Below are positions 404 to 12,409 of a stretch of DNA of 29,383 nucleotides, in pieces. Position numbers and translations under genes: made by a program. The number at the start of each line of letters is the position of its first letter. Position 1 is the stretch's first letter. This DNA is from a bacterium (GTDB taxonomy: Bacteria; Patescibacteriota; Patescibacteriia; JAACEG01): the NCBI GenBank assembly GCA_027040785.1, contig JALULG010000079.1, forward strand, positions 1-29,383, read 5' to 3'. The notes below the pieces were generated by a model that made no database searches, had not been told where the DNA came from, and was given only the letters and a program-made list of their open reading frames with translations.

Positions 404-1753
404 ATGAAAATAAAAAAATTAATTTTTCAAATCAAAAAAAATCCGATTCAATTTTTAATTTATCTTTTTGTATTTTTTCTGCCCTTGCAAACAACCTATA
501 TTGTCAGAGAGGTTTTTCTGCATAAATCAAAATGGGAGTATTTAACGATTTCCTTTTATATCAGCGACATAATTCTGCTTTTGATTTTTGCGATTTTCCT
601 TGTTTCAAACATCAAATACTTTAAAAAAATAAAAAAATTCAAACTCTCAAAAATCACTTTAACTCTTTTGTTTTTAAGTCTTTTTTCCTTTGCGTCAATT
701 ATTTGGGCGCCGGACAAAGAGCTGGCTCTTTTTTCAGCGGTCAAGCTGTCTTTTGCCATTGCTTTCTTTTTTGTAATTCTCAACACTAAAATTAATTGGC
801 GCAAATTAATGTTTGTTTTTATTTTTACCGCTATGCTTCAAGGCGCCTTCGGTCTTTGGCAATTTTTCAATCAATATTCACCGGCCAATAAATATCTGGG
901 AATCAGCGAACATAAAACAACTACGATTGGAACTTCTGTTGTTCATACAGTTGGCGAGAAAGCCGAAGATTATCGTCGCTGGCTCAGATCTTACGGCGGT
1001 TTCAGTCATCCGAATATTTTGGGCGGATTTTTGGCGATTATGTTGATTTTTATCGTAAACATATATTCGGAAATTAACGAAAAAGAAGAACCCACTTTTA
1101 AAGATTTGTATATCAGATTGTTTTTACTTTTTTCTTTAATTGCCATTTTTGCCGGAATGATAACCAGTTTTTCACGTAATGCTTGGTTGGTGGCGGGCTT
1201 GTCTTTTTTGGCTTTTTTTATAATTCACTTTAAAGACCGCAAAGAAAGCTTGTTAAAAACATCTTTTATTTTTTCAGTAATTTTAATCTTTTTTATTATT
1301 AATTTTTCAAATTTATTTTTATCTCGTTTTACTTTAAACAATCACTTGGAAATTCAATCTATAGAAGAACGAGTAAAGTACACTCAACAAGCCAAAGATT
1401 TGATCAAAGATCATCCTTGGTTTGGCGTGGGCATTGGAAACTATACTTTGGCAGACTACAATAAATTGCAAAAAAAATTACCGGCCTGGTATTATCAACC
1501 CGTTCATAATGTTTTTTTGTTAATCATTGCCGAGCTGGGTATAATCGGACTGCTTTTATTTCTTCTCTTTTTAGTCCTTTTGTTAAAAAATTTCCACAAG
1601 CAAAAAAACAATGTTTTTCTCTTGGCGGTTTTTTCCTTTTTGATTATGATGTTTTTTGACCATTGGATATGGAGTTCGCATTTCGGCTTGTTTTTCTTCT
1701 TTCTTATTTCGGCTTTTTACTATAAAAAAAGTTTTCAAAAAAAATCATCATAG
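404..1753 (+). CDS. O-antigen ligase (Wzy_C/WaaL)-like membrane protein, 449 aa
   Basis: Many TM helices; motifs R-S-Y-G-G-F-S-H-P-N-I-L-G, T-S-F-S-R-N-A-W, P-W-F-G-V-G-I-G-N-Y and P-V-H-N-V-F-L typical of O-antigen ligase/polymerase family. Confidence 0.85.
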   Translation: MKIKKLIFQIKKNPIQFLIYLFVFFLPLQTTYIVREVFLHKSKWEYLTISFYISDIILLLIFAIFLVSNIKYFKKIKKFKLSKITLTLLFLSLFSFASIIWAPDKELALFSAVKLSFAIAFFFVILNTKINWRKLMFVFIFTAMLQGAFGLWQFFNQYSPANKYLGISEHKTTTIGTSVVHTVGEKAEDYRRWLRSYGGFSHPNILGGFLAIMLIFIVNIYSEINEKEEPTFKDLYIRLFLLFSLIAIFAGMITSFSRNAWLVAGLSFLAFFIIHFKDRKESLLKTSFIFSVILIFFIINFSNLFLSRFTLNNHLEIQSIEERVKYTQQAKDLIKDHPWFGVGIGNYTLADYNKLQKKLPAWYYQPVHNVFLLIIAELGIIGLLLFLLFLVLLLKNFHKQKNNVFLLAVFSFLIMMFFDHWIWSSHFGLFFFFLISAFYYKKSFQKKSS

Positions 1754-1778
1754 GATTGTCCAAAACTTCTCCCAAAAC

Positions 1779-1802
1779 AAAAACCGCTTTATAGCGGTTT
1801 TT
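1779..1802. terminator. Bidirectional intrinsic terminator
   Basis: AAAAACCGCT-TTAT-AGCGGTTTTT between two convergent genes. Confidence 0.8.
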
Positions 1803-1836
1803 ACTTGGAAATTATTCTCAAATCAAAATCTTAAAA

Positions 1837-2025
1837 TTAAAGAGGCAAATCTTCTTTGTTAATAGGAGCCAGTCCGGTTTTTTCTCTGACAAAATCAACA
1901 AGTTCTTGATTGTCCGCCCATTTGCAAAATTCGCTCGCCACTTTTTTAAATTCCTCTTGTTTTTCTTCCGGAATTTCAATGTTCTTTAATTTTTCAACGA
2001 TTTCTTTTTCCCTATTTCTTAACAT
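1837..2025 (-). CDS. Small charged hypothetical protein, 62 aa
   Basis: ATG start, E/K-rich helical protein-like composition, ends just before the bidirectional terminator. Confidence 0.6.
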   Translation of the reverse strand: MLRNREKEIVEKLKNIEIPEEKQEEFKKVASEFCKWADNQELVDFVREKTGLAPINKEDLPL

Positions 2026-2575
2026 ATTTCTTGAATTTATTTCAGGGTCTCATGTTTTCACTGTCGCCCTGAATATTTCAGGGTCTCATGTCAAATCCAC
2101 TGTCATCCTGAACATTTCAGAATCTCGGGTAAATATATGTCATCCTGAACTTGTTTCAGGATCTCGTGTTTTTTAAGGTTTCACTCTTTCCTCCGAGATG
2201 CTGAAATAATACCGAATAAATTCAGCACAAGATTCAGCATGACAGGGTAGTTTCACTGTCATTCTGAACATTTCAGAATCTCGTGTCAATTCTACTGTCA
2301 TTCTAAACATTTCAGAATCTCGTGTTTTTTAAGGTTTTACTCTTTCCTCCGAGATGCTGAAATAAATTCAGCATGACATGGGAAGGGCGAGATGCTGAAA
2401 TAATACCGAATAAATTCAGCACAAGATTCAGCATGACATGGGAAGAGAAAGATGCTGAAATAAATTCAGCATGACATGGGGGGGGCGAGATGCTGAAATA
2501 ATACCAAATAAATCAGCACAAGATTCAGCATGACATAGAGGATGGTAATCACTGTCATAAATTTATGACAGTATT
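2025..2575. repeat. REP-like palindromic repeat cluster, locus 2
   Basis: More than 10 units of GTCATYCTGAAC(TTG)TTTCAGRATCTC and the inverse form GAGATGCTGAAATAAATTCAGCATGAC, including nested variants carrying an internal CCGAATAAATTCAGCACAA. Confidence 0.9.
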
Positions 2576-2654
2576 TTTAATACCTTATAACAAAGATATT
2601 TAGCTTATTTTAGCCAAATATTTTATATATACCTCAAATATCTGTCACAAACCC

Positions 2655-2683
2655 TTGACAAGTTTTTAATAATATGCTATAGT
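2655..2683 (+). promoter_or_regulatory. Sigma70-type promoter for the accessory region
   Basis: TTGACA (2655-2660), 17 bp spacer, TGc-TATAGT (2678-2683) extended -10; predicted TSS about 2690. Confidence 0.75.
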
Positions 2684-2689
2684 GTAATG

Positions 2690-3756
2690 TCAAAATCAAA
2701 AAAGCACATTAATAAAAAAAATAAAGAAAACTTCCAAGCACTTGTTTCTTGAGGATTAGAGTAACAAGAAATTGCGGAAACGCGATACTTGTTCAACCCG
2801 AAAGAAAATCAAGCAAGTGGTAAGCAGTGAAGTTCACTTCCTTTCAAATGCTTGTCGAAAGGAGGTGAAACCTCTTCTTATCACAAGAAGATGAGACGTA
2901 CCCTACATAATAAAAAGAGGTTCGCAAATATGAAAAAGGGATTTGCGATAAACTCATAAAATCTTTTTTATTCCTAACCATGGATAAAAAGGATTAAAAT
3001 CCCCAAAATTTAAACAGGACCCGAAAGTAATATCTAATTTGTCCTTGTTTAAATTATAGCATATTTGCAACCCCCTTTCTATTAAGAAGGGGTACTAAAG
3101 TTCTTTTATTCAATAAATCGGGATTGCAACTGGCTTGGCATCACTCCCAAGCTAAGGCATCGGACTTAACCACCCGATGAGCGGAAGTGTAGCTCCTGTT
3201 CCGGAAAAACCGGGGCAAAGCTCGCCAACCTTCCCCAGTCCCTTATAATATTGAGTGATTGTGAGGAAAAATTTGCCTTAAAATAAATTTTTCCTCATTT
3301 CAGTCAATGTTATTGACAATTTCATATTCTAAACACTACACCCAGGAAAGTTTCTTGCAAGGCTTTTCTAAAAGTATTTTTTAGTAGTGTTTAGAATACT
3401 TTTAGCAAAAGTCCTGCAAAAAGCTTTCCTAAAAAGGAAAGCTTTTTGTTCGTTGACAACTGAATAAATCAAAAATATTTTTAATGAAATAGCGCTACTT
3501 GTTATTGGTGGCGTTCGCTCGGATAAAATCGGAGCATTTGAGTTGATGATATTTTTTGATAATGAATTGGTATTTAATATTAATTCTAAAAATACAAATT
3601 AATCTGAAATAATACGCAATTTCGCGTTTTTAGATATTTTCTCCTTTCTAATTGGATTGCCTTGCCCGAGGCGGTTATTCGCCGTTTCAGGGAGGCAATT
3701 CAAAAAAATTTTTTCCCAACCCGGCAGATGATCCGGGAAAGGGGAAAGGAGGAAAC
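2690..3756 (+). ncRNA. Long structured non-coding leader / candidate ncRNA(s) upstream of the Ubl operon
   Basis: No credible ORF over about 1.06 kb; successive hairpins, e.g. 2833-2869, 3120-3242 closed domain, 3245-3313, 3344-3430. No known family recognised. Confidence 0.5.
3422..3450 (+). terminator. Intrinsic terminator overlapping a long alternative hairpin (possible attenuator)
   Basis: AGCTTTCCT-AAAA-AGGAAAGCT followed by TTTTGTT. Confidence 0.6.
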
Positions 3757-5343
3757 ATGAAAAACTATTTCTTAGTCCTCAACGAGGATCAAAAAAATAA
3801 AATCCAGGAAACGGAAGTAGAATTTTGCGACCTGAACATTGACGGCCATGCCGGTGTGGTCGTTGATGAAGAAAATATCAACCCGGCATTACAGGCCATT
3901 GGCATGGTCGTGGTAGCTGAGACGGGAACCACCTTGGAGGGGATTGTCAAAGTTGAACTGCGATCAATTGAAACAGAGATTTTATCTCAATCTGCTGAAT
4001 CACGAGGTAAGGTTGAGGTGGAAAGCTGGAATGGCTATCAAAAAGATGAGTTTAAAAAACTTGTTTCAGACATACTTGTCCCAGTTGTGCAGACAGATAT
4101 TATTTTGTCTGTGCCACATGGAAGCCAAGTAAATCCTGTTTCTGGTGATAAATTTTATATCAGGATTTGGTCTGGGGCTGGAAAAAAAAATGACTTTAAG
4201 GCTCCTCAAAAAATTTGGGGTTATGATGTTGCTTGTCGTGATGCCGGATTCAAACCTACTGGTAAAGGTGTTGCTATCGTGGATATCGAAACCGGATGGG
4301 CGGTTGCCGAGTTGGTAAAGAATAATCTATATATTCACCATGATGCCTGCCACAGTGGCAAAAAATCAGAGGTAGAGATTTTCCGTCTACTTCTTAAGGA
4401 GGTAGTTGTTGAATTAACGCTTTCTCCAGAAGAAAAAGCGGAGCGACAACGGAAGTTGGCGGAGGAGCGCCGGCGGCGTTCGCGGGAGCAGTATATTCAG
4501 GAGTGTTCAAAGCGTCTAAAAAAGACGCTAGAGGGAACGCGGAAAAAAATTGCTGACGGCGAACGCGAGGTTGAGGAGCTCCAGAGGCAACTTGTCCGTC
4601 GAATTCGCGAGCTGGCGGGCGCGCGGCGAAAATTAGAGCAGCTTACATCTTGTCAGAGCGGAGAATTAGAACGGTATGGAAAGGAGTTCGACAAGCTTCT
4701 GGAGGTACCGAAAGTTCGCGACGTGCAGGTTGCATCCGGGGTAATCAAGGTGTTCACGGACACCTTGTATTGTACTGATCCTCGCTCTGGTAGGCTCCAC
4801 GAGATCGGCGCATTTCTTATTGAGATTTATACCGACAATGGCGACATTCGTTGGTATAATCTCACCCGTCAAGTTGATGGGTATGATTGGGGAAAGAGCC
4901 AGGCTCCGCACATCAATGGCAAGGGTAAAGCTTGTTTGGGGACAATGACAGAAATTGTCCCTGAGCTCGTGGCGAATTACGAGTTTGCAGCTTTGACTAT
5001 GGTGGCCATCCAGTTCGTAGAATCGGTTAACACTGATGATGCAGCTGGAAAGTATATTGATAGATGGCCGCTGGCCCCTATTGAACTACAGCCGTCAGAA
5101 ATTCAGGAGGAGCTGAGGCGAGTTGAGAAACTTCGCGGACAAAATCCGTTTCACAACGTAGAGTCTGATCTCAAGTTCGTGCAGATTGCTCGAAAGATGG
5201 AACCCGGATCTCGTATCCGCAATTGTGGTGATTGCTGGTGCTTCACAGGGAGTAATGGCGTAAAGACGTCGCAGCTGGCTAAGCTCCTAGAGGTTAGCGA
5301 GGGGCAGGTTCGGGAAGTTCTGAAAAATTATTTTACGATATAG
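3757..5343 (+). CDS. Coiled-coil plus C-terminal prokaryotic E2 (UBC-like) domain protein, 528 aa
   Basis: True start is probably ATG 3757 after SD AAGGAGG. A long E/R/K/L-rich coiled coil is followed by QAPHINGKGKACLG, which matches the E2 HPN...G.ICL active-site pattern with a catalytic Cys. Operon context with JAB, E1 and Ubl. Confidence 0.75.
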   Translation: MKNYFLVLNEDQKNKIQETEVEFCDLNIDGHAGVVVDEENINPALQAIGMVVVAETGTTLEGIVKVELRSIETEILSQSAESRGKVEVESWNGYQKDEFKKLVSDILVPVVQTDIILSVPHGSQVNPVSGDKFYIRIWSGAGKKNDFKAPQKIWGYDVACRDAGFKPTGKGVAIVDIETGWAVAELVKNNLYIHHDACHSGKKSEVEIFRLLLKEVVVELTLSPEEKAERQRKLAEERRRRSREQYIQECSKRLKKTLEGTRKKIADGEREVEELQRQLVRRIRELAGARRKLEQLTSCQSGELERYGKEFDKLLEVPKVRDVQVASGVIKVFTDTLYCTDPRSGRLHEIGAFLIEIYTDNGDIRWYNLTRQVDGYDWGKSQAPHINGKGKACLGTMTEIVPELVANYEFAALTMVAIQFVESVNTDDAAGKYIDRWPLAPIELQPSEIQEELRRVEKLRGQNPFHNVESDLKFVQIARKMEPGSRIRNCGDCWCFTGSNGVKTSQLAKLLEVSEGQVREVLKNYFTI

Positions 5344-5353
5344 GAGGTTAATA

Positions 5354-6082
5354 ATGTTGAAAAACAGCTGGAGAACTGCGGCAAAAAAATTTTTGCCGCA
5401 CAGTTTCCAAAACAGGGTAGAGTTGACTAATATTCCGAGGATTCTGATCACCCGCCAAGCCTATGAGGATATGTATATCCTCGTAGATGAGGTAAATAAG
5501 GAGGTTGGCTGGATCGGAACAGTAGAACGAGCAGGCAGTGATTTTTTGATAAAGGAAATTTTTCTCCTTGAACAGGAAACACATGTGGCCACCTGCGAAA
5601 TTACGGCTGACGGTTTGGCTGAGTGGGCGCAAGAAATTATGGCTTCCCGTCCTGATGGAATGGAAGTTGTAAATTCATTGCGTTTTTGGGGGCATTCCCA
5701 TGTAAATATGGGAACGAGTCCTTCTGGCCAAGACGAGAGTCAAATGACAGTGTTTGTTGAAAACGGATGTAACTATTTTATCCGCGGCATTTTGAACAAA
5801 CAGGGCCGGATGGAGTTCACGCTGTTTCTGTATGATGTTGGAATAAAGATAAGCGATGTTGAGTGGGAGCTGTATGAACCAGTTGACGAAAGCAGGCGCG
5901 AGCGATGGAAGACGGAGATTGAAGCTAAGGTGAAGGAAAAGTATGTTCCCCCGCCAACTCGCCATGTTGGTTTTGCCCCCTATTATAATAGAAATTGGGA
6001 GGATAATTACGCCGGTATTGTTGGTGGAAATTCTCGCTCCTGTTCTCGCAAGAGCCGAAAAAGGAAAGGAGGGAAGAGATGA
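5354..6082 (+). CDS. JAB/JAMM (MPN+) metallopeptidase, deubiquitinase-like, 242 aa
   Basis: Complete JAMM motif: E (KEVGW) ... H-S-H-x7-S-x2-D (HSHVNMGTSPSGQD); SD AGGAGG upstream. Confidence 0.9.
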   Translation: MLKNSWRTAAKKFLPHSFQNRVELTNIPRILITRQAYEDMYILVDEVNKEVGWIGTVERAGSDFLIKEIFLLEQETHVATCEITADGLAEWAQEIMASRPDGMEVVNSLRFWGHSHVNMGTSPSGQDESQMTVFVENGCNYFIRGILNKQGRMEFTLFLYDVGIKISDVEWELYEPVDESRRERWKTEIEAKVKEKYVPPPTRHVGFAPYYNRNWEDNYAGIVGGNSRSCSRKSRKRKGGKR

Positions 6083-6765
6083 ACAGAGTTGATCCCCTCC
6101 GACATCTTTCAGTATTTTCTCCCAGTAAATTTGGCTCGCGCCGGGTGGACGTTGTTGGTGCAGGCGCTACTGGTTCCCGCGTAGTGCCATCTCTTGCGAA
6201 ACTTGGAATTCAGAATATCCATTGCTGGGATTTTGATGTGGTTGAGGAACATAATGTGGCTAATCAGATTTTTGGAATCGGCGACATCGGAAAGTTGAAA
6301 GTGGAGGCTCTTGCGGAAGTTGTGAAACGCGACACTGGAGCTGAAATTCAAGTTCACGCGGAAAAAGTGGATGGTTCTCAGTCTCTGGGCGAGGTTGTTT
6401 TTTTACTAACGGATACAATGGAATCCCGCAAGCAGATTTGGACCAGGGCGCTTAAGTTCAAGTTGCGCACTCAGTTGGTAGTTGAGACTCGCATGGGCGC
6501 GGATAATGGTAGAGTGTATGCGTTAAATCCCAATAAACCCGGACATATCCGGGAATGGGAAAGGACGTTGTACGATGATGCGGAAGCGGAAATTTCAGCT
6601 TGTGGTGCGAGTGTTAGCGTGGGGCCTACTGCTGAGGTTATTTCAGGTATAGCTGTATGGCAATTAATACGGTGGTTCGCCATTGAGCAAGGAGAGGAAG
6701 ATGACCTTGATAATGAAATAATATTCTCTCTTAGGCCGATGGCGACCATCACCCGGAAATTTTAA
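6079..6765 (+). CDS. ThiF/MoeB-family E1-like adenylyltransferase, 228 aa
   Basis: VVGAGATGS nucleotide-binding loop, DFDVVEEHNVANQ motif, crossover-loop Cys in SACGASVSVGPT; ATGA overlap with the JAB gene. Confidence 0.9.
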   Translation: MNRVDPLRHLSVFSPSKFGSRRVDVVGAGATGSRVVPSLAKLGIQNIHCWDFDVVEEHNVANQIFGIGDIGKLKVEALAEVVKRDTGAEIQVHAEKVDGSQSLGEVVFLLTDTMESRKQIWTRALKFKLRTQLVVETRMGADNGRVYALNPNKPGHIREWERTLYDDAEAEISACGASVSVGPTAEVISGIAVWQLIRWFAIEQGEEDDLDNEIIFSLRPMATITRKF

Positions 6766-6890
6766 TTAACATTTAACCGTCCAACCCTATGACGTTAAAC
6801 TGGGGCTGTAATACTCCGGGGCAGCTCCGGGGCGCTTCGCACAGGCGGTCATTGTGTAAAAAATTCCAAGAACATGAAAGGAGAATGACT

Positions 6891-7100
6891 ATGATTACAG
6901 TAAGAATCGGAAGATTACCAGGACGGATTGAGGAATTGGCGCTTGAGTCTGGGTCTGTTGTAGCTGATGCTCTTGAGGTTTCTGCGCTTGACCCTGAAGG
7001 TTACGAAGTTCGGGTTAACGGCGCACCGACTGACCTAGAAGCGGAACTGACCGACGGTGACACGGTTCTCCTGGTTAAAAAGATCAAGGGCAACTGCTAG
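6891..7100 (+). CDS. Ubiquitin-like (beta-grasp, ThiS/MoaD-like) protein, 69 aa, C-terminus KIKGNC
   Basis: Start ATG 6891 (or 6885) after AAGGAG; VRVNG..........LxDGDTVLLV signature of beta-grasp modifiers; near-terminal Gly. Confidence 0.85.
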   Translation: MITVRIGRLPGRIEELALESGSVVADALEVSALDPEGYEVRVNGAPTDLEAELTDGDTVLLVKKIKGNC

Positions 7101-7860
7101 GCAAGCCCCAGCCAAAAGCCGAAACCATAAAAAGGAGGAGAAAGTGAGAAATAAATTTGTTTTGGCAGGCCGTTTGGGTTGAAGCGGGAAATGGCGGCCT
7201 AAAATAAACATTCCCCGCAGGTTATTTGTTTTATTTACGGAGGCATGGCCCGTAAATATAAACAAGTAACCCAAGCCCCGATATTGGAAGCGGTTAGAGG
7301 AACCGCTTAAACAAAATCCTCACCATGACTTGTCTAGGCAGTTTGGTGGTTCTGTCTAGGCTCGAGCTTGAAGGTAGGCATTGAAGGTCCCGAAGTTAAT
7401 GAGGACTGGCCGAAATCAAGCATCCGTCGTTTTCAATGACGGTAAAGAGCTGTTATATCCGAGTGGCTTCTTTATTGAAGTAGGGGTTTCGGCGCGAGTG
7501 AGCCCTTAACACAAGCGGATAGGTAGCCATACACCGAGACAAGTATGGCAGCTATACGGGTGAGTTAGCGCGACCTGGTATAGCATCTCCTTTGAGGAGA
7601 TACCCTTTAAGGGTGAACTAAAATGAACAGCTCAAAAATTACCCAAGAGAGGCCCGACTGTCTGAATGTGGCGGGCAGGAACGCTAATCTCTTGTATTTA
7701 AATGGCAAAAATCCACATCGTGAGTAGCCTTTGGAAAGAGCGGATGATCTCGGACCAAAAGGTGAAAGCGGGTTGCTTATAGTCAAGGAGTGCTATAAGC
7801 AACTATTTAACCAAACTCCATGGTTTTTTGAAGCGAAAGGTGGTACCTTTCGCTTCTTCT
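7101..7860 (+). ncRNA. Candidate large, highly structured ncRNA
   Basis: No credible ORF; nested long-range stems (7366-7371/7416-7421, 7447-7454/7626-7633, 7456-7461/7516-7521, 7644-7650/7688-7694) and three candidate pseudoknots; ends in a 12-bp hairpin at 7830-7856. Confidence 0.6.
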
Positions 7861-7876
7861 CCGAAACCATGATTTT

Positions 7877-7923
7877 AGATCCTGAAATAATACCGAATTC
7901 TCGGCACAAGATTCAGGATGACA
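7877..7923. repeat. Single nested REP-like unit, locus 3
   Basis: AGATCCTGAAATAATACCGAATTCTCGGCACAAGATTCAGGATGACA matches the nested units at 2191-2243. Confidence 0.85.
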
Positions 7924-7980
7924 TAAATATTAATCGTGGTTTCAGAGGAGGGAAATTTTAAAAAAAATCAACTAAAAAAT

Positions 7981-8135
7981 CTTTGGGCTTTGGTTGCCGG
8001 AAAAATGAAGTTGGCTTTTGGATAACCGCTTTATTTTTTCGGTAACCAAAAGGTTGCCCAAAGTGCCCGAATACGAATTAGATATTTTCAAAGTCTATTT
8101 TTGAAATTTATCTATATTCGTATTCGGGCTTTTTG
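7981..8135 (+). promoter_or_regulatory. Two tandem long imperfect hairpins, the second followed by a T-tract
   Basis: CTTTGGGC/GCCCAAAG (7981-8063); GCCCGAATACGAAT/ATTCGTATTCGGGC (8065-8129) followed by TTTTTGTTTG. Confidence 0.7.
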
Positions 8136-8168
8136 TTTGTCAAAAAATAAAAAAAGGAGGAAAAAGAG

Positions 8169-8549
8169 ATGGCGAAGAAAATTTTGTGGATTAGCCGGCA
8201 TCCAATGCATGGTGTTCAAATGGGCGCTTTGCGGAGGATGTTTGGTGAAGATGTTGTAGTTGAGGAGGACACCCGGCCGTTTGATGGAGCCGAGGCGATT
8301 GTTCGTAGATACCGAAAAGGCGATTATGATGATATTATCGTTGTGGCGCCATATTCGGTTTTAACGCGAATGGTTGATCTTGGCTTGCGGCCACTTTGGT
8401 CAGAGGCGGAAATTGTTCAAGATCCGGAATTAGCGGATTGGCGAGTCAAAAACCGTCTTTATCGTTTCAAACGGTTTCGGCGTGTTCGTCGACTGGTTAT
8501 GGAATTTGATGATCTCGGCCCAGAAGCCGAGAGAAAGGAGGAAGATTAA
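8169..8549 (+). CDS. Hypothetical protein, 126 aa (alpha/beta, WISRH motif)
   Basis: SD AAGGAGG, ATG start, protein-like composition, GC-richer than host. Confidence 0.8.
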   Translation: MAKKILWISRHPMHGVQMGALRRMFGEDVVVEEDTRPFDGAEAIVRRYRKGDYDDIIVVAPYSVLTRMVDLGLRPLWSEAEIVQDPELADWRVKNRLYRFKRFRRVRRLVMEFDDLGPEAERKEED

Positions 8550-8794
8550 TGGGAAGAAAAAAGATTGAATTGGAGAGCTTGATGTTTAGCCAGCCAGCCA
8601 GTGCGGCTATCACAGAGTTTATTCTCAATCTGGAAATCTTTTCCCAAATGACCGGCTCAGGAGATGTGGAAGCTTGGGGAGAGGTTAAAGACAACGGCGA
8701 TTTAGTTGTTAAAGCCGTTGTTAAAACCGCTTCCGGAGGGAAGATTAAAGGAGGTTTAGAAATCCCTTCGGAACACTGGGATTATGCCCAGTAA
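8549..8794 (+). CDS. Hypothetical protein, 81 aa
   Basis: SD AAAGGAGG, TAATG stop/start overlap with the previous gene. Confidence 0.75.
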   Translation: MGRKKIELESLMFSQPASAAITEFILNLEIFSQMTGSGDVEAWGEVKDNGDLVVKAVVKTASGGKIKGGLEIPSEHWDYAQ

Positions 8795-8811
8795 AATTTG
8801 GCAAACAAAAC

Positions 8812-8845
8812 GGGGGGGGCAAGTGTAAAACTATCTTGCCCCCTA
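8812..8845. terminator. Hairpin between convergent genes
   Basis: GGGGCAAG-TGTAAAACTAT-CTTGCCCC. Confidence 0.5.
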
Positions 8846-8860
8846 CGTTCTTTGAAAAAA

Positions 8861-10123
8861 TCAAATACTACTCACAAACCAAATCGGTCGGAATTTGACG
8901 GAGCAGTTTTGGTATTGCTCGTCTTTAACAATTGACCAATTGAGAACATAAGCTTCTTTTGGTTTATAGTTGCGAATAAAAGATTTTAATCCGGAAGGAA
9001 TGGTAGTTTGGTTTCCACCTTTGACTTCGATGGGAATCAATTGATTTTCTCGCTTGAGAATGATGTCTACTTCTTGACCTTGACGAGTACGCCAATAATA
9101 GACTTGTCCCCAGACACTCAAATTTTTCAACAGTTCCGTTACCACAAAGTTTTCCGCCAGCGCGCCGAAGTCGGTTGTCTTCGGCAACACCGAAAAATTA
9201 TCCAAGAGATAATTTCTCAATCCGCAGTCAATCAGATAAACTTTGGGGTTGCGAGTTAATTCTTTGATTTTGTTGGTGGAAAAAGGATGGAGCAAGTGAA
9301 GGATAAATGTATTTTGCAGAAGTTCCAAGCGATTTTCCAAAGCAACCCGATTAAGTTCGGAATTGACGGAGAGTTTTTGTTTCTCCAGCAAATTTCCGAT
9401 AAGAGAAGATAAAAGCGCCAGCAATTTCTTAACTTGCAAAGAATTGGCTTTGTAGTTCCAGATTTTAATGTCGCGAGTTAAATAAGAGTTTACCAATTCT
9501 TTCAAAGTTGATATTTTTTCTTCCGTACCGTTCAGATTGTTGACTTCCGGATAACCGCCGAAAGTGAGAAAGGAAACGAGTTTTTGATTAACGGATTTAA
9601 TCAGCCCGGTGGGTAATTGGCCGGAGTCTTGCAAAAGGGAAACAAACTGCCTCGTTTTTTCTTCGTTTTCCCAGTTAATGAATTCCTCAAAATCAAGCGG
9701 CCAAATCGGGATAACGATTTTGCGCCCCGCCATTGATTCATCAATATTGAGATACCAAGAAGCCGAGCCGGTAATAATCGGTTTGATATGCGGATAATGA
9801 TCATGAATTACTTTCAGAGTGGAACCAATTTCCGGAGATCTTTGAAATTCGTCAATAAAAAGATAGTATTTTTGAGAGGTATCTTTTAATGGAAGTGTAT
9901 TCAGAGCGTCTCTTTGGGTTTTCCATTGCTCCAGATCATCTGTTTGTTCTAAATCAAACCAAAGAATTTGGTTTTCAGAGATATTTTTTTCGGAAATTAA
10001 TTTCTCTCTAACCATTTTCATTAGAGTGGTTTTGCCAACTTGTCTGGCACCATTGAGAAGAATAATGTGATGAGAATCAATTTCTTGCCAAATTTTTGGA
10101 AATATTTTTCTGTTTTTTAGCAT
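8861..10123 (-). CDS. AAA+ ATPase (AAA_14 + DUF4143-like, C-terminal PD-(D/E)XK-like motif), paralog 1, 420 aa
   Basis: Start probably ATG 10123 (MLKNRKIF); Walker A GARQVGKT, Walker B FIDEFQ, TGSAS, GGYP, EVDII...IEVK. Confidence 0.88.
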   Translation of the reverse strand: MLKNRKIFPKIWQEIDSHHIILLNGARQVGKTTLMKMVREKLISEKNISENQILWFDLEQTDDLEQWKTQRDALNTLPLKDTSQKYYLFIDEFQRSPEIGSTLKVIHDHYPHIKPIITGSASWYLNIDESMAGRKIVIPIWPLDFEEFINWENEEKTRQFVSLLQDSGQLPTGLIKSVNQKLVSFLTFGGYPEVNNLNGTEEKISTLKELVNSYLTRDIKIWNYKANSLQVKKLLALLSSLIGNLLEKQKLSVNSELNRVALENRLELLQNTFILHLLHPFSTNKIKELTRNPKVYLIDCGLRNYLLDNFSVLPKTTDFGALAENFVVTELLKNLSVWGQVYYWRTRQGQEVDIILKRENQLIPIEVKGGNQTTIPSGLKSFIRNYKPKEAYVLNWSIVKDEQYQNCSVKFRPIWFVSSI

Positions 10124-10411: not shown

Positions 10412-10558
10412 CTCTCAAACGAACCTTAATGAAAAGGAAAATTATTTTCGTTTTTAGCAAGGTTCGTTTGAGGACCAAACATTTAGGGGCTGAGCATCCC
10501 CGGACCAACTGCTCTGCCTGAGGCGAAAGCCGAGGGCAAAATTCCTTAGGAGGAAATT

Positions 10559-11506
10559 ATGTATAATTTCAAACTCTTTGATCCTCGTCCGGTCCCCGCC
10601 GCCATCGCGACTAACGACCAGATTTTCGCCCAGGGCCCCGTCCTGGGTATTGAGGTCACCGTCCCGGTGCTCGCCCAGCGGTGCGAGCTGGGGAACATTG
10701 ACCCCCAACACACCGGAGGGGACACCTCCACTGCCGCCATTGAGGTGGCGCTAGAATGGCCCCTCCCGCCCGAAGGGGCGATGCTCGCCACCGTGCGGGC
10801 GGATCTGGATTCGGTCGGCGCCATGGCGGTCCTCGCCATGCGTGCCGAGGGACAGATTACTATGTTCCTCGAGGATGAAATTCTTGGGGACGAAGAACTG
10901 TCCCTGAGGATCGCGGCGGTTGCGGCCGCCGATAAATCCAAAACCGAGGAATGGCAGGGGCCGCGCCCCTTGCCGACACCTGAGGATCCCTAGGGCGACT
11001 CCCCTGCGGAGAAGCTCCTGGCTGCCATCGCGGCGTGTGTGGCGGACTTTCGTCGTCCTCTATCCGAGAGGGTAGAAGCGATGCGGAAATGGTTACTCAC
11101 CGGCGAAGAGCCAGAGGAGTACCGTGACCGCGTTGAGCGAGAGCGGGCCGAGATGGTGGCCGCCCTTCAAAGTGGCGCCATCAATGTCCGGACAGAGGCG
11201 GATGGGCGGATCGCGGTGGTGGAGTCCACCCACCGTGCCGCCACTGCCGTGGGCTATCACCTGGTCCCGGTAGTAGTCGCCCTGAATCCGGAGTTCAGGT
11301 TTCAGGGCGGGGAGCCCCACCGCAAGTTTACGGTCTGCCAATTCTCGGCAGGCTATGTGGATTTGCGGAAAGCCCTCCAAGAGCTTAACCAGCTCGAGGA
11401 GGGCTGGGGTGGTTCGCCCACCATTGGGGGCTCCCCGCAAGGGGTAAGCTCCCGCCTCTCCACCGATAAGGTGGTGGAGGTGGTAGCCCGCCACCTGCTC
11501 AGCTAG
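10559..11506 (+). pseudogene. GC-rich DHH/DHHA1-like phosphoesterase-type gene split by an in-frame TAG at 10991-10993
   Basis: ORFs 10559-10993 and 11039-11506 share a frame (PEDP*GDSPAEKLL...); SD AGGAGG; motifs NIDPQH, ADLDSVGAMA and C-terminal GWGGSPTIGGSP. The family call is tentative. Confidence 0.6.
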
Positions 11507-11650: not shown

Positions 11651-12409
11651 ATGCTTACCAAACACCTAACCCAAGCGGGTTTAAATGAAAATCAAGCCAA
11701 AGTTTATCAAGTCCTTTTGGAAAGGGGCGGTCTTTTGGGTGGGGAAATTTCGGTTTTAAGCGGTTTGGGCAGAGCTTTGACTTATAAAATTTTAAATGAC
11801 TTAGAAGAAAAAGATTTGATTTTTAAAGAAAAATCAGGGCAAGTTTATGTTTTCTTTGTGAAAAATCCGCAAAGAATGATTGAGAAAATAAAAAGAAAAG
11901 AAAAAAAATTACGTCAAGCGCGCGAGAATTTAAACTCCCAATTAAGCAATTTTAATGCTTTACATTTTGCTGATTCACCTAAAATATATCGTTACAACGG
12001 TTTAAACGGAGTAAAAAAAGTTTTGGATGATTCTTTAATTAACAATTCAAGCAAAGAAATTTTTTCTTTTCTTGATATGGAAAAATATGCCAATCATATC
12101 AATAATTTTCACAAAATAGATTATCAAGAAAAAAGAAAAAAATTAAAAATCAAAAAAAGAATTATCACTTTAAACAAACAAGCAAATCAAAAAATTGCTG
12201 AAAAGAAAAAAGACGGTTTTACCAAAATAAAATTCAGCGATCATAAAAATTATCCGTCCAATATGAAAGTAAATGTTTACGACAATAAAGTTGCTTTCCT
12301 AAATTTATCAGAACACAATCCTCACGGGATTATTATTGAAAGCAAGGAAATTTTTAATACTTTGAAAAGTATGTTTTTGAACCAATGGTTACTGCTTGGC
12401 AGTCGCTGA
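11651..12409 (+). CDS. TrmB-family transcriptional regulator (wHTH + PLD-like effector domain), 252 aa
   Basis: N-terminal GLNENQAKVYQVLLERG...SGLGRALTYKILNDLEEKDL HTH; YNGLNGVKKVL linker; VNVYDNKVAF C-terminal pattern. Confidence 0.8.
   Translation: MLTKHLTQAGLNENQAKVYQVLLERGGLLGGEISVLSGLGRALTYKILNDLEEKDLIFKEKSGQVYVFFVKNPQRMIEKIKRKEKKLRQARENLNSQLSNFNALHFADSPKIYRYNGLNGVKKVLDDSLINNSSKEIFSFLDMEKYANHINNFHKIDYQEKRKKLKIKKRIITLNKQANQKIAEKKKDGFTKIKFSDHKNYPSNMKVNVYDNKVAFLNLSEHNPHGIIIESKEIFNTLKSMFLNQWLLLGSR

Follow-up and report, generated by a model that had tools for sequence, protein, structure and literature searches.

The window analysed here is the whole 29,383-nucleotide (nt) stretch of contig JALULG010000079.1 (GenBank assembly GCA_027040785.1; contig C79 of the host genome). 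Its host genome is of the candidate phyla radiation (CPR)/Patescibacteria type and comprises 1.04 Mb in 224 contigs, with a completeness of 93%. An island at about positions 3500-9000 has a GC content of ~45%, against ~30% in the remaining contig, and carries on its plus strand an E2-like gene, here called big (3652-5343, 563 amino acids [aa] encoded), a JAB/MPN-like peptidase gene (5354-6082), an E1-like gene of the ThiF family (6079-6765), and a 69-aa ubiquitin-like (Ubl) beta-grasp gene (6891-7100). Between the Ubl stop codon and the next gene lies a gap of 1,068 nt (7101-8168), which is followed on the same strand by the small genes d1 (8169-8549, 126 aa) and d2 (8549-8794, 81 aa). We consider it highly likely that this gap encodes a real, selected, plus-strand structured RNA of a new family.

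The preliminary description of this DNA had noted about 750 nt with no credible open reading frame (ORF) here, and this was borne out across 7101-8168. The longest frames were 32 to 77 codons under translation table 11 and were still short when TGA, TAG, or TAA was read through singly; a hidden gene or an alternative genetic code was rejected on the grounds that stops occur in all six frames under every single reassignment. Gene callers likewise placed no gene in the homologous gaps of three related loci (L078, L079, and L085). The minimum free energy (MFE) of 7101-7870 was -263.7 kcal/mol, compared with -219.9 +/- 6.3 kcal/mol for dinucleotide shuffles (z = -6.9), so that the stems are better than those of shuffled controls; the minus strand gave a z value of -5.0. 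The conserved element spans about 7131-7870 (~740 nt), and conserved hairpins and a terminator extend to 8135.

Comparison with Rfam 15, whose families include GOLLD, ROOL, OLE, HEARO, raiA, RNase P, tmRNA, group I/II introns, and T-box, gave no family at the gathering threshold in the whole window, and the corresponding gaps at 11 related loci likewise had no match. When the cut-off was relaxed to E <= 10 for 6700-8300, the output was confined to eukaryotic microRNA and small nucleolar RNA noise far below threshold, with nothing bacterial or relevant over 7101-7870. Known Rfam families are thus excluded by covariance-model scores below the gathering threshold, as the preliminary description had anticipated for the large ornate RNAs, RNase P, tmRNA, and introns. 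ARAGORN found no tRNA or tmRNA in the window or in 13 related loci, and no tRNA-like domain is present. A type III antitoxin RNA was rejected because Tandem Repeats Finder returned 0 arrays and no endoribonuclease-toxin family was found among the neighbouring genes by Pfam or PADLOC. Literature searches returned no paper that describes this RNA or links any RNA to these operons.

DNA searches of 400 genomes of the phylum and 10 genomes of the host order detected no homologue of the RNA, which indicates that the island was not inherited vertically with the host lineage. Homologues were reached through the neighbouring proteins, which led to loci with the same cassette that were then searched with blastn, nhmmer, and the covariance models R1 and R2 (for modules B and C, described below). 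A metagenome scan yielded 66 loci with the same cassette, and contig look-ups and a genome search added more. Related RNA was found at about 15 distinct loci beyond the window, all from CPR bacteria and stemming from different studies and different classes. The preliminary description had looked to homologues and covariation for confirmation, and these independent copies contain abundant compensatory changes. An exact scan of genome contigs for the core motif gave one true match (L077) and one chance match inside a gene (L076); in IMG/VR, the core motif had 0 matches and the module C motif had 29, all of them judged by model R2 to be chance.

One homologue, L085, is a full-length copy with 89% identity, and the others share only parts with the window, which revealed a modular build. 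As read from these comparisons, the RNA is composed of three kinds of pseudoknotted module, A, B (the core), and C, each predicted to fold independently, together with variable hairpins and a terminal hairpin. Module A (7166-7359) is carried by the window, L085, L078, L079, and L090. Module B (7446-7587) is carried by the window, L085, L016 (identical to L091), L041, L077 (a Saccharibacteria metagenome-assembled genome), and L114. Module C (7638-7773) is carried by the window, L085, L078, L079, and L090, in two copies each by L082, L016, and L114, and as more diverged copies by L092, L015, L017, L022, and L106. The module orders A-B-C, A-C, C-C, and C-B-C were all found across loci; A-B-C is the order of the window and of L085, the latter with an extra degenerate C-like element upstream. 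The initial proposal of a possibly new large, ornate, pseudoknotted RNA class stands, with the refinement that the RNA is modular and does not have a single fixed fold.

All of the hairpins and long-range helices first listed from the window were present at their positions. The core module B contains six helices and the long invariant single-stranded runs AACACAAGCGGAUAGGU and ACACCGAGACAAG. Model R1 scored 81 to 162 bits in the six carriers, and in the R1-fitted alignment of these six sequences, 96.5% of the cells in 38 pairs were paired and 21 pairs showed double changes; none of 500 shuffles was as good, and slid controls were 26 to 39% paired. Two sets of pairings noted earlier belong to this module: TATCCG/CGGATA corresponds to core helices 1 and 2, and GCCATAC/GTATGGC is core helix 5, with compensatory changes in 6 of its 7 pairs. 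The earlier long-range helix GAGCTGTT/AACAGCTC (7447/7626) is also present and is kept as GAGCUG/CAGCUU in L085; in the form GAGCUGUU (7447-7454) with AACAGCUC (7626-7633), it may close module B. Between the module and this closing helix, the MFE fold contains two small hairpins, AUCUCC..GGAGAU and ACCCUU..AAGGGU (7585-7614), which are identical in L085. A GNRA loop that had been marked at about 7494 is not conserved as such, the sequence being GCGCGAG in the window and GCGAAG or GCGCAG elsewhere.

Module C was aligned both with MAFFT (alignment A7, fitted to no structure) and with model R2. The plain alignment contained 30 pairs, including a pseudoknot, with 92.3% paired and 19 pairs double-changed; the R2 alignment of 18 distinct copies was 89.9% paired, with 22 of 24 pairs double-changed and 0 of 500 shuffles as good. 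The window and L085 are 93% identical in this region. Helix P1 (7644-7650/7688-7694) is the CAAGAGA/TCTCTTG pairing of the preliminary description and has double changes in 7 of 7 pairs; it is accompanied by P2 (7658-7664/7672-7678) and P3 (7728-7734/7755-7762). The pseudoknot PK1, AUGUGG (7666-7671) with CCACAU (7713-7718), had been proposed as ATGTGG/CCACAT and was 100% paired in 7 sequences with 3 of 6 pairs compensatory. It exists in four covarying forms: AUGUGG/CCACAU, GUGUGG/CCACAC (L078), GUGCGG/UCGCAC (L079), and GUAUGG/CCAUAC (L082 and L090). Two unpaired features are also conserved in module C: the AGUA/GAAA internal loop (AGUAG at 7723-7727 opposite GAAA at 7764-7767), which resembles the loop-E/sarcin-ricin motif, and the P3b loop CGGAUGAU (7741-7748), an invariant CRRWUGAU hairpin loop.

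Downstream of module C lie two further hairpins that had also been described, at 7772-7803 and 7830-7856, and both covary with L078. The first, P4 (7772-7782/7793-7803), carries the loop GGAGU (7787-7791), which pairs with ACUCC (7815-7819) to form the pseudoknot PK3. L078 has at the same place a 13-bp hairpin of other sequence in which GGGGC/GCUCC replaces GGAGU/ACUCC, in support of this pseudoknot as initially drawn; the P4/PK3 region (7772-7819) differs in L079, L090, and L082. The second is an 11-bp terminal hairpin (7830-7840/7846-7856) with the loop UGGUA. L078, L079, L090, and both L082 copies also have a hairpin here, with another stem, a loop of the UGG(G)U type, and a CU-rich tail after it. 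In the window this tail, UUCUUCUCC (7854-7862), is complementary to GGAGGAGAA at 7134-7142 near the 5' edge. This putative 5'-3' pairing is read from sequence alone and cannot covary, because GGAGG is invariant.

Module A was found with nhmmer in five sequences including the window. Its helices were taken from per-sequence folds and direct reading, as plain MAFFT misregisters three of the five sequences. Helix A1 (7168-7172/7195-7199) forms an H-type pseudoknot with A2 (7184-7190/7211-7218), and A2 occurs in the compensatory forms GCGGGAA/UUCCCCGC, CGGGAAGU/ACUUCCCG, GCGGAAGG/CCUUCCGC, and GCAAG/CUUGC. The long hairpin A3 (7220-7271), A4 (7290-7306), and A5 (7334-7359, CTAGGCAG/CTGTCTAG) fold separately in each of the five sequences, each with a different stem sequence; hairpins had been placed at 7221-7270, 7288-7308, and 7334-7359, and they thus recur with altered stems in the homologues. 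A3 keeps its loop AGGYAUGGC (AGGCAUGGC at 7241-7249 in the window) on stems that differ in sequence, and A5 takes the forms CUAGGCAG/CUGUCUAG, CUUGGAGG/CCUCCAAG, CAUGGA/UCCAUG, and GUUGCC/GGCGAC. Two pseudoknots go beyond those of the preliminary description. PKa joins the A4 loop GAGGA (7297-7301) to the adjacent strand UCCUC (7317-7321), with the forms GAGGA/UCCUC, GGGA/UCCC, and GAAGAU/AUCUUC, and PKb joins CAUGG of the A3 loop to CCAUG (7323-7327), its third pair being C-G, U-G, or U-A across homologues. The first part of module A is ~70% identical between the window and L085, with compensated changes. The linker to module B (7360-7445) is 93% identical to that of L085 and partly alignable to L079. 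Its predicted helix GCUUGA/UCAAGC (7366-7371/7416-7421) is unchanged in L085, the only close homologue, and the candidate pseudoknot AUUGAA/UUCAAU (7380-7385/7432-7437) has in L085 one C-to-U change that gives a G-U pair and is neutral.

A second conserved RNA-like element, absent from the window, was observed just 5' of the E2-like gene in L092 (5327-6000), L017 (1300-1816), and L094 (5200-6000). Its sequence runs ...AGCAAGGAAGA...GGGCGAGCUYGGGACA...CAGACGCCCGAGC, and repeated AAAGGAGGUGG-AUG-CCACC hairpins and C-like modules stand before it; the element probably represents another type of module within this RNA family. L106 (genome G744) has a 1.77-kb ORF-free stretch (1420-3193) between its E1 gene and a d1-like gene, with a tRNA T-arm-like GGUGGUUCGACUCCAUC segment and no ARAGORN or Rfam match; this stretch may belong to the family as a highly diverged copy.

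All R1 and R2 matches lie on the operon strand, and several invariant G-U and U-G pairs in module B would be A-C mismatches on the opposite strand; these two observations show that the RNA is encoded on the plus strand. The core is far more conserved than the coding DNA next to it: between the window and L085, module B is 99.3% identical, compared with 71% at the third codon positions of d1, and the upstream operon genes have diverged beyond the reach of blastn.

Wherever neighbouring genes are available (~15 loci), the modules directly adjoin a member of the cassette. The preliminary description placed the RNA directly downstream of the Ubl gene, which holds for the window and seven others (L085, L078, L079, L082, L090, L016, and L114). 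It does not hold as a rule, since the modules precede the E2-like gene, with TrmB or Ubl on their other side, in L092, L017, L015, and L022, and stand between E1 and the next gene in L041, and before E1 in L106. The link of the RNA is to the whole E2-like/JAB/E1/Ubl cassette and not only to the Ubl gene. E1 identity across the module-bearing loci ranges from 42 to 75%. In whole genomes (G000, G607, and G744), the modules are single-copy and at the cassette; the cassette E1 is present in 9 of 400 genomes, and R2 at E <= 0.001 had no match in 150 other genomes of the class. That the RNA has been found only beside Ubl conjugation operons hints that this tagging system has an RNA partner.

The 5' edge of the RNA starts ~30 nt past the Ubl stop codon and contains (7132-7182) a Shine-Dalgarno (SD)-like AAGGAGG (7132-7138), a GUG codon 6 nt further on (7144), and a 12-codon mini-ORF, MRNKFVLAGRLG*. 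An SD-like site, a start codon, and an ORF of 4 to 14 codons are present at the RNA 5' edge in 12 of 16 loci, and the AUG often lies inside a small hairpin. The peptides include MKNKFIL* (L085) and MKNKFVK* (L090), and examples of their patterns are MKNKF[VI][LK]*, MN[WY]xRDGP..., and MPP[WG]*. Beyond the terminal hairpin lies a palindromic dispersed repeat of ~50 nt (7877-7927), similar to repetitive extragenic palindromes or miniature inverted-repeat transposable elements, which occurs at least 27 times in the 1.04-Mb genome. This copy is 98% identical in L085 and absent from L078 and is probably outside the RNA fold, though within the conserved gap. Other copies in the window lie at 2196-2244, 2390-2439, and 2488-2537, with the arms ATCCTGAA...TTCAGGAT. 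A long hairpin read from the sequence (7981-8063) then leads to a strong intrinsic terminator (8065-8078/8116-8129, followed by UUUUUGUUUG, to 8135) just 5' of the d1 ribosome-binding site. The region 7981-8135 is 92% identical in L085, and L078 has an equivalent terminator. A simple promoter and terminator scan gave nothing useful and missed this terminator because its loop is long; no competing antiterminator pairing was identified for it.

The d1 gene lies 3' of the RNA in seven loci (the window, L085, L078, L079, L082, L114, and L106) and elsewhere is also found without it. Its modelled product (mean predicted local distance difference test [pLDDT] score, 93) has a small alpha/beta fold that is flavodoxin- or receiver-like with an added beta-hairpin, and the model had no PDB fold match at E < 0.01. 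The d1 product is 60 to 90% identical across many CPR lineages, and its look-alike clusters in the Atlas are unnamed and often viral.

In the AlphaFold model of the big product (pLDDT 87.8), the N-terminal domains are rich in beta structure, a coiled coil extends over ~100 residues, and the C-terminal domain is UBC/E2-like; the top 50 Foldseek matches of this last domain in PDB were all E2 enzymes (probability up to 0.99, E 0.02-0.09). The protein has 111 homologues, and P419, H420, and C428 are invariant. The protein had no match to Pfam or to the PADLOC E2 models, and a PDB sequence search gave coiled-coil noise only. The JAB-like gene matches the PADLOC JAB model weakly (E 0.0012) and in more than 50 loci has the E2-like gene on one side and the E1 gene on the other. 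The E1-like gene matches Pfam PF00899 (E 1.5e-20) and the PADLOC E1-E2 models. The Ubl gene has weak ThiS/TGS matches under the Pfam cut-offs, and its homologues keep their operon position, sometimes as 2 to 7 tandem repeats. With an E2-like, a JAB-like, an E1, and a Ubl gene, the cassette appears to be of the kind known from Bil/Bub defence operons; a defence ATPase, PDC-S01, was identified by PADLOC next door on the opposite strand, and the cassette of the window may likewise serve in defence.

Several observations on cassette loci were made in passing. Tandem Ubl arrays are found at L082:8896-10400 (~7 repeats, a poly-Ubl), L078:9187-9603, L043:11781-12622, and L060:5357-6019, and most of these arrays have 2 or 3 repeats; the two C modules of L082 are tandem as well. 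Rows of 4 to 6 successive big paralogues at L109:9862-15793 and L042:519-8356 suggest a diversifying recognition or docking domain. In L041 (3227-3610) and L077 (857-1582), the core-containing RNA is followed by a conserved protein (MVRVTIMSGP... and MIRVKCLSGP..., respectively); no separate Ubl gene was detected in these two loci, and the conserved protein could be a Ubl fusion. A TrmB-family regulator gene (11651-12409 in the window) is near the cassette in many loci, usually divergent and 1 to 2 kb upstream, and a TrmB gene is also upstream of the cassette in L078, L079, L091, L092, and L094. No ORF reaches 100 aa in the 1.9 kb 5' of the E2-like gene of the window (1754-3651); this stretch holds the dispersed repeat in three copies and no detected RNA module, though the corresponding gap carries modules in other loci. 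Positions 10501-11500 of the window have a GC content of 62 to 64% within a contig of 30 to 40% GC, with overlapping ORFs of ~130 to 155 aa on both strands and no Pfam or Rfam match; they may be foreign DNA or another structured element.

The reading that we favour, at a probability of roughly 0.45, is that the E2-like/JAB/E1/Ubl cassette has in this RNA a multivalent partner or regulator, which is probably transcribed with it or right behind it. Three sets of observations point in this direction: modules that are repeated and shuffled and have invariant loops look like docking sites; an adjacency to cassette genes that is exclusive and flexible in position suggests a partner encoded in the cassette; and the SD-like site and mini-ORF, together with an anti-SD-like tail, suggest sensitivity to ribosome loading. 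The RNA would accordingly bind protein and be linked to translation. The docking sites could be AGGYAUGGC, the invariant C loop, the single-stranded runs of the core, and the loop-E-like motif, and the docked partner would most plausibly be the E2-like protein, through its uncharacterised N-terminal domains, or d1. The RNA might scaffold Ubl conjugation or hold it in check. Ribosomes that load at the SD-like site and mini-ORF might, in concert with the CU-rich tail complementary to that site, remodel the RNA and make the system responsive to the translation state of the cell, for instance when phages attack.

Five points weigh against this reading. About 60 of the ~85 cassette loci, many with ample flanks, gave no RNA match, so that the cassette can evidently work without the RNA. 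The RNA also lies 5' of d1 in five to seven loci, and the RNA+d1 block of the window is 88% identical to that of L085 despite different cassettes; the unit of inheritance may thus be RNA+d1 rather than RNA+cassette. The E2 identity of big is a model-based assignment from fold similarity with weak E-values. Modules A and C are supported by only 5 to 7 full-length sequences, and several of the alignments in this analysis were fitted to the model. Finally, the terminator before d1 and the SD/anti-SD arrangement fit a cis-regulatory leader equally well.

Such a giant cis-acting leader or attenuator is the main rival and a possible, if tentative, explanation. The RNA would be the 5' untranslated region of the next same-strand gene (d1/d2 here; the E2-like gene or E1 elsewhere), would sense a ligand, a protein, or translation of the mini-ORF, and would control passage of the terminator at 8065-8135 or the downstream ribosome-binding site. 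The modules are indeed always 5' of a same-strand gene (d1 in seven loci, the E2-like gene in L092, L017, L015, and L022, and E1 in L106), the terminator between RNA and d1 is strong and conserved, the SD-like site and mini-ORF that 12 of 16 loci have at the 5' edge resemble those of leader-peptide attenuators, and the tail is complementary to the SD-like site. However, the RNA measures 740 to 1000 nt, has over 15 helices and no fewer than 5 pseudoknots, and exceeds every known leader several-fold in size. About 200 nt, including the dispersed repeat and the long hairpin, separate the fold from the terminator, for which no antiterminator alternative was found. Shuffled and duplicated modules are also unusual for a switch with a single expression platform, and d1 occurs elsewhere without the RNA.

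A bolder form of the cassette-partner reading, in which the RNA is an obligate subunit of the Ubl conjugation machine, each module docks one copy of the E2-like protein or a poly-Ubl repeat, and ribosome loading is the infection switch, is doubtful. Also unlikely is a large ornate RNA of autonomous function comparable to OLE, GOLLD, or ROOL, for example an RNA-only or ribonucleoprotein assembly, that is unrelated to Ubl conjugation and merely travels with the cassette in a mobile or defence island. GOLLD and ROOL are borne on islands or prophages. They also form homo-oligomers, according to a preprint (bioRxiv 10.1101/2024.12.08.627333), and a likeness to them is consistent with the foreign-looking GC content of the island, the neighbouring PDC-S01 ATPase, the recombinase and methylase near the L082 copy, the often viral look-alikes of d1, and the exchange of the RNA+d1 block independently of the cassette. 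Against this, the nearest gene is a cassette member in all of the ~15 loci with context, at three positions and at E1 identities of 42 to 75%, which makes hitch-hiking hard to support; moreover, the RNA was not seen away from the cassette in 5 whole genomes or 150 further genomes, and the two IMG/VR motif scans were without a true match.

Very improbable is a micropeptide mRNA whose product would be the short mini-ORF peptide and whose structure would be a stabilising untranslated region. The SD is perfect and correctly spaced, and M(K/R)NKF(V/I)(L/K) recurs in the window, L085, and L090, whose codons differ at third positions (UUU/UUC, GUU/GUG, and UUG/UUA); however, peptide length and sequence vary widely between loci (MPPW*, MDDKTAV*, and MNWERDGP...), the place of the stop codon varies, the strongest selection acts on the core, 300 nt further 3', and the AUG lies inside a conserved small hairpin in several loci, so that conservation at the RNA level explains the motif equally well. 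That the region has no function, as a decayed gene, repeat debris, or chance structure, would fit the dispersed repeat at 7877-7927 and the tendency of AT-poor islands to fold well, but it is effectively refuted by covariation, with compensatory changes in more than 40 base pairs, a core far more conserved than synonymous sites, stops in all frames under each single reassignment, and no tandem repeats found by Tandem Repeats Finder.

The RNA is thus a new class with a new kind of genomic association. Large, intricate bacterial RNAs are rare, and the ribosome, RNase P, group I/II introns, OLE, GOLLD, ROOL, and omega-RNAs have each revealed new biochemistry. The present RNA combines clean covariation, at least 5 pseudoknots, and a modular build, and the non-coding RNA repertoire of CPR bacteria is almost unexplored. 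Its exclusive adjacency to the cassette raises the possibility of an RNA cofactor, sensor, or regulator of protein tagging, which is part of no described Ubl system. As a leader, it would far exceed in size and complexity every cis-regulatory RNA known in bacteria; were it an obligate subunit, it would make the cassette the first E1-E2-Ubl system to be a ribonucleoprotein and would link translation status to protein tagging in a new manner. Modules of 140 to 200 nt suit cryo-electron microscopy and chemical probing.

Among known systems, the cassette resembles the Bil (BilABCD) and Bub operons for Ubl conjugation and defence, described in two preprints (bioRxiv 10.1101/2023.09.04.556158 and 10.1101/2023.09.26.559546), in what are probably the same four parts: Ubl, E1 (ThiF), E2-like fold, and JAB peptidase. 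It differs in its E2-like protein, which at 450 to 560 aa carries additional N-terminal domains and an extended coiled coil and matches no E2 model of Pfam or PADLOC, in its often tandemly repeated Ubl genes, and in its CPR hosts; our literature searches on Bil/Bub-type systems returned no description of an RNA component. Like tmRNA, the RNA contains several pseudoknots and a short internal reading frame; unlike tmRNA, it has no tRNA-like domain by ARAGORN and no Rfam match, and its mini-ORF has its own SD and start codon. Like this RNA, the CsrB/RsmZ sponges and ToxI consist of repeated units with an invariant loop motif, in a number that varies per locus, and each ToxI unit is a pseudoknot encoded beside its protein partner. 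Here, three kinds of unit of 140 to 200 nt take the place of identical repeats of 20 to 36 nt, and Pfam and PADLOC detected no CsrA-like or ToxN-like gene among the neighbours. With long leaders (T-box, leader-peptide attenuators, and EAR/put), the RNA shares a position 5' of a same-strand gene and a mini-ORF followed later by an intrinsic terminator, but it is three to ten times larger, is modular, and has no identifiable terminator/antiterminator alternative and no Rfam match. The closest likeness in character is to OLE, GOLLD, ROOL, HEARO/IscB omega-RNA, and raiA. As in these RNAs, several hundred nt (here more than 500 nt without a conserved ORF) form many covarying helices and pseudoknots with compensated pairs, highly conserved unpaired nucleotides are present, the phylogenetic range is narrow, the island looks foreign, and the function is not obvious from the sequence. 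It departs from them in matching no covariance model, in its SD-like site and mini-ORF at the 5' edge, and in having shuffled and sometimes duplicated modules instead of one fixed architecture. The setting differs as well: GOLLD and ROOL are found in prophage tRNA regions, OLE beside membrane and isoprenoid genes, and HEARO beside the IscB nuclease, whereas the RNA described here is always beside the E2-like/JAB/E1/Ubl cassette.

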